Assembly: GCF_016026235.1 (NCBI RefSeq)
Contig: NZ_CP065613.1
Direction: 5' to 3' (one strand)
Length of the DNA stretch: 64,000 bases
From: Escherichia coli
Lineage (GTDB): Bacteria > Pseudomonadota > Gammaproteobacteria > Enterobacterales > Enterobacteriaceae
Numbering within the stretch: position 1 is the stretch's first letter; each line of letters begins with the position of its first letter. Both the position numbers and the translations under genes were made by a program. A model generated the notes under the pieces. The model searched no databases and had not been told where the DNA came from. It saw only the letters and a program-made list of their open reading frames with translations. Shown one piece after another: positions 47,195 to 47,690 of this stretch.

Positions 47195-47690
47195 TGTGGA
47201 TGCCTGATGCGACGCTGGTGCGTCTTATCAGGCCTACGCCAGACAGCGCAATAGCCTGATTTAGCGTGATTTTGTAGGTCGGATAAGGCGTTTATGCCGC
47301 ATCCGACATCAACGCCTGATGCGACGCTTAACGCGTCTTATCAGGCCTACGCCAGACAGCGCAATAGCCTGATTTAGCGTGATTTTGTAGGTCGGATAAG
47401 GCGTTTACGCCGCATCCGACATCAACGCCTGATGCGACGCTTGCCGCGTCTTATCAGGCCTACGCCAGACAGCGCAATAGCCTGATTTAGCGTGATTTTG
47501 TAGGTTGGATAAGGCGTTTATGCCGCATCCGACATCAACGCCTGATGCGACGCTTAACGCGTCTTATCAGGCCTACGCCAGACAGCGCAATAGCCTGATT
47601 TAGCGTGATTTTGTAGGTCGGATAAGGCGTTTACGCCGCATCCGACATCAATGCCTGATGCGACGCTTGCCGCGTCTTATCAGGCCTATC
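47195..47690. repeat. BIME array: about 4.3 tandem copies of a 113-bp unit, each carrying two REP palindromes
   Basis: ggcctacgcc recurs at 47231, 47344, 47457 and 47570 (113-bp period); each unit has gcctgatgcgacgct...gcgtcttatcaggcctac and ggataaggcgtttacgccgcatccgaca REP units in alternating orientation. Confidence 0.9.

Follow-up and report, generated by a model that had tools for sequence, protein, structure and literature searches.

A tandem BIME-2-type REP array of variable length between the convergent genes gltP and yjcO of Escherichia coli

The convergent genes gltP (+ strand) and yjcO (- strand) are separated by a spacer that is occupied by a tandem REP/BIME array, at positions 47202-47689 of the window, i.e. 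the whole stretch of 64,000 nucleotides that was analysed. This raises the question of which kind of element fills the spacer, how its nearly identical copies arose, and what the array could mean for the two genes that run into it. Both the element class and the gltP-yjcO locus were already known. The answer that we consider very likely is that the spacer holds a BIME-2-type array of five z2 and four inverted y REPs, which would be self-propagating and the hairpins of which would cap both mRNAs.

Anatomy of the array

The spacer measures 529 bp in the window (47162-47690). The upstream convergent gene is gltP (45848-47161, + strand), an ORF of 437 amino acids with a TAA stop codon at 47159-47161; it was assigned as a glutamate/aspartate:proton symporter by a full-length match to the NCBIfam equivalog NF008440 (904 bits) and by the RefSeq annotation of matching records. 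On the opposite side lies yjcO (47691-48380, - strand), a 229-amino-acid ORF named according to the RefSeq annotation of records that are 99.9% identical. Together with the REP pairs described below, the NF008440 match and the RefSeq annotation bear out the proposal from an earlier sequence-only reading that a tandem BIME is located between gltP and yjcO. Eight nucleotides past the gltP stop codon, RNA folding revealed a hairpin, TTGCCGGGGATATCCACCCGGCAAT (47169-47193), and this region also gave a sub-threshold naRNA4 match (47170-47234, 49 bits). The hairpin is conserved, as it was seen in every allele read. It has no T-run and received no terminator call, and is thus not an intrinsic terminator; it is probably a decayed y REP.

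Tandem Repeats Finder (TRF) reported a single array at 47202-47688 with a period of 113 bp, 4.3 copies, 95% matches and a score of 897. The self-identity of the array at lag 113 amounted to 92.5%, compared with ∼20-27% at adjacent lags. In the whole window, GGCCTACGCC has four exact matches, at 47231, 47344, 47457 and 47570 (0.11 expected by chance). The exact 113-bp period that had been read from the positions of this motif was therefore confirmed by exact search and by TRF, and an inverted-repeat search recovered the two REP palindromes of opposite orientation that had been noticed in each unit. By TRF, in-register reading and inverted repeats combined, the whole array (47202-47689) comprises five z2 REPs and four y REPs in 4.3 units of 113 bp. 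The z2 REPs have the form GCCTGATGCGACGC-loop-GCGTCTTATCAGGCCTAC and start at 47202, 47314, 47427, 47540 and 47653, while the y REPs are inverted, have the form GTAGGTCGGATAAGGCG-loop-CGCCGCATCCGAC and start at 47274, 47387, 47500 and 47613. Tail to tail, the REPs are joined by an invariant linker of 36 nt, GCCAGACAGCGCAATAGCCTGATTTAGCGTGATTTT, which is present in four exact copies in the window (0 expected). Head to head, they are joined by an S linker of 6 nt, which reads ATCAAC and, in the last unit, ATCAAT. The period is the sum of these parts (36 + 34 + 6 + 37 = 113).

Read from gltP to yjcO, with z2 REPs on the + strand and y REPs on the - strand, the array begins with z2 REP no. 1 (47202-47237), which ends in CTAC. 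With 36 nt, this REP is 1 nt shorter than the other z2 REPs (loop TGGT versus TTAAC or TTGCC), so that its head is 112 nt, and not 113 nt, away from the next. It is followed by tail-to-tail linker no. 1 (47238-47273), locus-specific by exact-copy count and by its 1-9 places per genome, y REP no. 1 (47274-47307; GTAG start on the + strand, loop ...TTTATG...) and the head-to-head S linker no. 1 (47308-47313, ATCAAC). The next unit consists of z2 REP no. 2 (47314-47350; 37 nt, loop TTAAC), linker no. 2 (47351-47386), y REP no. 2 (47387-47420; ...TTTACG...) and S linker no. 2 (47421-47426, ATCAAC), and the third of z2 REP no. 3 (47427-47463; loop TTGCC), linker no. 3 (47464-47499), y REP no. 3 (47500-47533; ...TTTATG..., with an additional C>T at 47506) and S linker no. 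3 (47534-47539, ATCAAC). The array is completed by z2 REP no. 4 (47540-47576; loop TTAAC), linker no. 4 (47577-47612), y REP no. 4 (47613-47646; ...TTTACG...), S linker no. 4 (47647-47652, ATCAAT) and z2 REP no. 5 (47653-47689; loop TTGCC). The 36-nt linkers were delimited by exact-copy counts, the S linkers and y REP no. 3 by in-register reading, and all other REPs by the inverted-repeat search, complemented by in-register reading for z2 REP no. 1. A distance of 5 nt separates the end of the z2 REP no. 5 stem from the stop codon of yjcO. The foot of the palindromes is well kept, with GTAG in all four y REPs and CTAC in four of the five z2 REPs; in the last z2 REP, the terminal CTAC is mutated to CTAT, which corresponds to GTAG -> ATAG beside yjcO. 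Furthermore, an AA/GC two-base stem mismatch is found in all nine REPs at the identical two stem positions.

The copies also differ in an ordered manner. The difference between ttatgcc and ttacgcc copies pointed out in the sequence-only reading is real, and it belongs to a regular alternation: along the array, the y loops follow the order ATG, ACG, ATG, ACG, and the z2 loops the order TGGT, TTAAC, TTGCC, TTAAC, TTGCC. Past position 47220, comparison at lag 226 gave 2 mismatches, versus 12 at lag 113. This comparison reveals an (AB)2 structure followed by a terminal REP, with a higher-order period of 226 bp and with alternating rather than scattered differences, and not a series of four equal copies. 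The same lag-226 comparison placed the first double unit, y[ATG]-S-z2[TTAAC]-linker-y[ACG]-S-z2[TTGCC]-linker, at 47274-47499 and the second, which has no final linker, at 47500-47689.

The REP types of E. coli are y, z1 and z2, a REP being defined as an imperfect palindrome of 30-40 nt, the foot of which bears a conserved GTAG that reads CTAC on the opposite strand (PMC3333891). A BIME-1 pairs z1 with y, occurs singly and has a long L linker, in which an IHF site is often found; a BIME-2 pairs z2 with y, is repeated in tandem, and has a short S linker as well as s, l or r motifs at its flanks; and mixtures of these features are referred to as 'atypical' BIMEs (PMC3333891). In the window, we found nine elements of 34-37 nt with the stem mismatch, all of them extragenic, within the interval bounded by the stop codons of gltP (47161) and yjcO (47691). 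They are of the z2 and y types without z1, alternate in orientation, are separated by a short S linker, and occur in tandem copies that vary between strains. The z2 and y types were assigned by comparison with the REP325 elements named Y and Z2 in PMC4550694. Judged by its sequence, the array has BIME-2 composition and architecture, because its z2 stems are those of the REP325 Z2 elements, its y REPs are set apart from the REP325 Y by a single compensatory base pair, located at the base of the stem (GCCGGAT...ATCCGGC to GTCGGAT...ATCCGAC), and its S linker motif, ATCAAY, recurs as ATCAAT in an unrelated solitary y-z2 BIME at 36672-36742.

The 36-nt linker was found only at this locus when 5,426 genomes were searched at ≥80% identity, with 1-9 matches per genome. 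At its ends (G...AGCGCAAT...ATTTT), it is similar to a linker of 13 nt, GGGGAGCGCATTT, located at 62576-62588, and TRF detected an internal 10-nt repeat within the 36-nt linker. In view of this likeness and of the internal repeat, the linker may conceivably be an expanded short motif. In the DS3 table of BIME-1 and BIME-2 intervals of Sutormin et al., REP325 is listed at 4,331,603-4,332,185, while nothing is listed at ∼4,301,633-4,302,231, where gltP-yjcO is expected from the W3110 coordinate offset that we derived with REP325. In the light of this gap in the table, older catalogues may file the gltP-yjcO array as an 'atypical' BIME; the omission concerns the catalogue and not the sequence.

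Proposed role of the array and competing readings

Within the array (47195-47650), no ORF of at least 40 amino acids was found, and the spacer did not yield a sigma-70-like promoter. A terminator-like site was likewise not found on either strand of 47162-47690. By contrast with shuffled controls, both strands of the array proved to be strongly hairpinned, with folding z-scores of -12.7 (+ strand) and -11.6 (- strand). The gltP and yjcO transcripts, being without terminators, would be expected to run into the array from both sides. Because neither of the convergent genes has a terminator, the REP hairpins most likely serve as 3′-end caps, which would stop 3′-to-5′ exonucleases and dampen any transcription that continues into the gene on the other side. 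According to references cited in PMC12306157, REP hairpins shield mRNAs from 3′ exonucleases and attenuate transcription. A REP located at most 15 nt from a stop codon is reported to stall terminating ribosomes and to lower translation (Liang, Rudd and Deutscher 2015, as cited in PMC12306157), and the last REP of the array, 5 nt past the yjcO stop codon, would fall inside this range. All functional statements on the gltP-yjcO array are drawn from what is reported for its element class.

The array itself would be a self-propagating and largely neutral repeat. About one-third of complete genomes have a single REP at the locus, so a long array is dispensable. Blocks of 113 bp or 226 bp are presumably gained and lost when units recombine unequally or when replication slips from one unit to another. 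A contribution of the REP-associated transposase TnpA_REP to this turnover is possible, because the enzyme cleaves the MG1655 form of the BIME in vitro: the oligonucleotide B319 of Ton-Hoang et al. (2012), a partial BIME from the MG1655 gltP-yjcO spacer, was cut by TnpA_REP at four linker sites (PMC3333891). Binding of TnpA_REP requires the stem mismatch (PMC3333891). The features of a TnpA_REP substrate are present on the + strand of the array, namely four y REPs with GTAG, five (T/C)GCC|TGAT sites and five GGCC|TA(C/T) sites.

Alternatively, the array could primarily be a strong gyrase site and topological insulator at the point where the positive supercoils of the two convergent genes collide. 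As an account of the primary role, we regard this as possible, albeit doubtful. BIME-2 elements are enriched in gyrase cleavage sites, with a preference for y REPs (PMC6379681), and are mostly located at the borders of supercoiling regions (PMC10592627), which would suit an array with four y REPs between convergent genes. However, cleavage is confined to some of the BIME-2 elements, and the 582-bp REP325 array, a comparable one of six units, had 0/2/0/0 sites and thus at most 2. In addition, the BIME intervals tabulated in the Topo-Seq study do not include gltP-yjcO, and the y REPs of the array carry the variant stem base. The Topo-Seq cleavage coordinates, in lists that are incomplete (as a positive control, 18 of 61 known entries were recovered, and none for REP325), included none in the range of the locus. 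Gyrase binding and topological insulation at gltP-yjcO are plausible by analogy. The earlier suggestion that such arrays bind gyrase and IHF accordingly stood in part: the y/z2 class is a reported gyrase target (PMC6379681), whereas IHF binding is a property of the BIME-1 L linker.

It is unlikely that the array is a source of naRNA4-like RNAs, in which case read-through from gltP would give double hairpins of ∼71 nt (y-S-z2) that are bound by HU and bridge cruciform DNA. In favour of this idea, the Rfam covariance model RF02564 (naRNA4) matched all four y-S-z2 pairs on the + strand with 68-79 bits, above the gathering score of 59.5 (47277-47347, 71.4 bits; 47390-47460, 77.1 bits; 47503-47573, 68.0 bits; 47616-47686, 79.0 bits), and the orientation relative to the upstream gene is the same as in REP325. 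Qian et al. (2015) furthermore reported that what matters is the structure of the RNA and not its sequence, and that transcripts arise from almost 80% of REP elements (PMC4550694). However, the same model scored the solitary and unrelated BIME at 36672-36742 higher, with 84.1 bits. This showed that RF02564 is not specific to REP325-like genes, and that a match to it identifies any y-S-z2 pair rather than a specific RNA gene. Moreover, REP325 has a period of 100 bp and different linkers, and ∼36% of the sampled genomes have no y-z2 pair at the locus. An HU-bound, nucleoid-condensing RNA was shown for REP325 only (PMC4550694); an HU-linked role of the gltP-yjcO array is possible by analogy. In practice, Rfam-based annotation will tag every unit as 'naRNA4', although the model fits any y-S-z2 pair.

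We considered it quite improbable that the number of units is a heritable, fast-mutating 'dial' on gltP and yjcO expression or on local supercoiling, such that lineages and K-12 stocks would differ phenotypically. If this were true, alleles of 0 to 9 units would vary the number of 3′ hairpins, of gyrase sites in y REPs and of naRNA4-like units.

Copy number and history of the array

Returning to the array as a BIME-2-type repeat with turnover of its units, we determined its length in other genomes with a query in which the two unique flanks were joined, so that the span in each record is the array length. The query covered 5,422 complete genomes, 59 of which, evenly spaced, were tabulated; unit counts from these public assemblies are given as assembled. 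The lengths fell into two series. In the first (37 + 113n), 19 records had 37-38 bp (0 units), 7 had 137-151 bp (1 unit), 8 had 262-264 bp (2 units), 1 had 376 bp (3 units) and 13 had 489-490 bp (4 units). In the second (107 + 113n), with flanks that are 96.7-97.7% identical, 2 records had 107 bp (0 units), 7 had 446-449 bp (3 units), 1 had 673 bp (5 units) and 1 had 787 bp (6 units). The outer REPs are degraded in this second series, which includes Nissle 1917 with 8.8 copies. A single REP without any y-z2 pair (0 units) was thus found in ∼36% of the 59 sampled genomes, and the four units of the window in ∼22%; the flank identities of these 13 four-unit alleles spanned 98.7-99.9%. A search with the linker alone detected it in 2,804 of 5,426 genomes, in up to nine copies. 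Across the genomes compared, the array therefore comprises between 0 and about 9 units, each step in length being 113 bp, and the expectation that BIME copy number varies between strains was borne out at gltP-yjcO. Our literature search for the use of this locus as an MLVA/VNTR marker retrieved nothing specific.

Unit numbers also differ among K-12 records. NC_000913.3 and many further MG1655 records have 5.3 units, other assemblies labelled 'MG1655' have 4, Origami2-DE3 and one more record have 3, and MC1061 has 2. These may be differences between stocks or assembly collapses, either of which is possible. In NC_000913.3, the last y REP is 2 nt short, and the gap coincides with a published +CG call. 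Specifically, two variants in the gltP/yjcO intergenic region were reported for MG1655 stocks, +CG at 4,296,380 with a frequency of 100% and C>T at 4,296,060 with a frequency of 33% (PMC4330922; PMC8611074). Since independent MG1655 assemblies fill the 2-nt gap (span of 953 versus 951), NC_000913.3 is probably wrong by 2 nt in this REP. The gltP-yjcO spacer was also described as a boundary of a 164-kb amplification (PMC12625342), and a junction at this position agrees with REPs being recombination substrates.

That the four copies are an artefact of assembly, or that they stem from a very recent expansion in this strain only, is very improbable. Tandem 113-bp repeats are indeed prone to mis-assembly from short reads, the K-12 assemblies disagree (5, 4, 3 or 2 units), and the breseq variant at 33% frequency lies inside the array (PMC4330922). 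However, an array of 489/490 bp was present in 13 of the 59 evenly sampled complete genomes, one other complete genome is 99.9% identical over the whole region without gaps, and the ABAB order was also found in an independent K-12 assembly.

The history of the array was approached by typing the units according to their loop variants and reading the alleles by eye. The two-unit alleles of T16R and MC1061 consist of one AB block. Both the window and the AKBV MG1655 assembly have two AB blocks, and the K-12 flanks of the latter are 98.7% identical to those of the window. NC_000913.3 has one further A-type unit, and strain 361 shows the order A-A-B. These block-wise patterns argue that the changes are gains and losses of whole units or whole double units, as unequal recombination or slippage would give.

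When one genome per species was scanned for the linker, it was found only in Escherichia, plus one contaminant contig. The array comprises ∼2 units in Escherichia whittamii and 5 in Escherichia sp. E1V33, and lies between gltP and yjcO in either genome, with flanks of 93-95% identity to the window. On the evidence of these orthologous arrays, the array is older than E. coli. The near-identity of the copies had originally been taken as a sign of recent expansion, and this interpretation did not hold. The ABAB pattern is shared with the four-unit K-12 array (flanks 98.7%), four units are carried by ∼22% of the sampled genomes, and the orthologous spacer holds the array in the two other Escherichia, which argues that the identity between copies reflects continuing duplication and deletion within an old array.

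Variants in the gltP/yjcO intergenic region recur in many laboratory-evolution papers on MG1655 stocks.

The scientific weight of these findings is small, as the element class and the locus have both been published, and their value is mainly practical. The four-unit allele is common. Because its length is polymorphic, the array misleads read mapping, and the recurrent 'gltP/yjcO' calls in MG1655 resequencing arise from it, the probable 2-nt error in NC_000913.3 among them. Furthermore, the two flank backgrounds together offer a clean allelic series of 0, 1, 2, 3, 4, 5, 6 and 8 units, a natural experiment on REP arrays with which mRNA 3′ ends, translation beside a stop codon abutted by a REP, and gyrase binding could be tested.

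Comparison with known REP and BIME systems

The idea that the array is an IHF-binding BIME (RIB/RIP, BIME-1) can be dismissed as highly implausible. All that speaks for it is the general observation that IHF binds certain BIMEs (PMC3333891), whereas the array is a tandem of z2 and y REPs with a 6-nt head-to-head linker and without the IHF consensus WATCAANNNNTTR in 47162-47690. The nearest such site is at 46802, within gltP, and with the consensus search of the spacer empty, an IHF site in the array was rejected. What the array has in common with BIME-1 or RIB/RIP elements is the presence of inverted REPs at the 3′ ends of transcription units. The z1 and y composition, the IHF site in a long L linker, and the single copy are features of those elements that are not found in the array.

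With the BIME-2 family, the array shares the alternation of y and z2 REPs, the S linker, the tandem arrangement, the extragenic location at the 3′ ends of genes and the variation between strains. It differs from this family by the 36-nt linker that is found at this locus only, by its omission from the DS3 table, and by its y REPs, in which the base of the stem carries a compensatory C>T / G>A change.

REP325, in the yjdM-yjdN spacer ∼30 kb away on the K-12 map, likewise consists of tandem y-linker-z2 units with a second linker. However, its period is 100 bp, compared with 113 bp in the array, its head-to-head linker measures 12 nt instead of 6 nt, and its tail-to-tail linker ∼17 nt instead of 36 nt, with unrelated sequences. 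Identity with REP325/naRNA4 was rejected since the period and the linkers differ, as read from the NC_000913.3 sequence; the gltP-yjcO array is an analogue of REP325, being neither the same element nor a paralogue of it.

The gltP-yjcO BIME of MG1655, in contrast, is orthologous to the array, with the same 113-bp unit, the same z2 and y REPs, and the same 36-nt and 6-nt linkers. The two differ in that the MG1655 array has 5.3 units, versus 4.3 in the window, in that it contains an extra y[ATG]-z2[TTAAC] unit, and in that the loop of its first z2 REP is TTGCC where the window has TGGT.

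Allelic forms of the array

In addition to alleles of the window's type, a second series of arrays was found in Nissle 1917, TUM17543, 1162C and KE48, where the flanks are 96.7-97.7% identical to those of the window. Arrays of this series carry GCCTGACTGAGT and a partial linker in place of the first z2 REP, 10 nt are missing from their last z2 REP, and their linkers contain the variants GATGTAGCG or GATTTGGCG. The numbers of 113-bp units seen in this series were 0, 3, 6 and 8. The O157-like strain 28RC1 has a one-unit allele, in which the 36-nt tail-to-tail linker shows an internal deletion of 13 nt (…CAGACAGCGC/TAGCGTGATTTT). 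This deletion, which is flanked by short AGCG repeats, is common to all three O157-type records of our sample.

The MG1655 reference and possible array instability

In the MG1655 reference sequence NC_000913.3, the last y REP of the array (about position 4,296,380; about 2880 in the reference locus) is missing 2 nt (CG). The same dinucleotide is present in independent MG1655 assemblies, and resequencing papers list '+CG gltP/yjcO' at 100% in MG1655 stocks. The missing CG is therefore probably a reference error. The C>T change at 4,296,060, reported by breseq at a frequency of 33%, is the ATCAAC/ATCAAT difference between array units. Assemblies labelled K-12 also diverge in unit number, with five units in the MG1655 reference, four in AKBV01000001, three in Origami2-DE3 and two in MC1061. 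This spread indicates either that laboratory timescales are long enough for the array to change, or that it has collapsed in some of the assemblies.

The gltP/yjcO spacer bounds a 164-kb ampC amplicon in a line of MG1655 evolved under amoxicillin, and is also a boundary of an adjacent 86-kb duplicon in that line (PMC12625342). This suggests that large duplications can use the gltP-yjcO array as their recombination junction. The array sequence was furthermore encountered in the myxobacterial assembly of Pyxidicoccus caerfyrddinensis, on a 240-bp contig with 0.53x coverage (NZ_JAAIYA010000177.1) that is 98% identical to the array. Since the array is Escherichia-specific, this contig is almost certainly E. 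coli contamination of the myxobacterial assembly.

A putative decayed y REP next to gltP

A conserved hairpin with a 9-bp stem, TTGCCGGGGATATCCACCCGGCAAT, is located 8 nt past the gltP stop codon (window 47169-47193) and is not followed by a T-run. In its 3′ half, CCGGCAAT, the hairpin is identical to the 3′ end of the canonical y REP at 36695-36705, and together with the first z2 REP it gives a naRNA4 match of 49 bits, which is below the threshold. The hairpin looks like a decayed y REP, in which case the array would at its origin have consisted of five y-z2 pairs.

Other elements of the window

A SECIS_2 element (50155-50209, minus strand, 87 bits) lies directly upstream of a 559-aa ORF (48474-50153) whose match to formate dehydrogenase alpha begins at profile position 146; fdhF is divided in ORF lists because of its selenocysteine UGA codon. 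The Hfq-binding sRNA sraL is matched over its full length at 29293-29433 on the minus strand (Rfam, 153 bits).

Two further REP elements can be compared with the array. The tail-to-tail REP pair at 62540-62622 has a mosaic left REP, in which the stem base is of the y-variant kind (GTCGGAT...ATCCGAC) and the upper stem of the z2 kind. The 13-nt linker of this pair, GGGGAGCGCATTT, is similar to both ends of the array's 36-nt linker. The solitary y-S-z2 BIME at 36672-36742 has the S linker ATCAAT, identical to that of the array, and with 84.1 bits it scores higher against Rfam naRNA4 than every unit of the gltP-yjcO array, so that this family acts as a generic detector of BIME-2 units.
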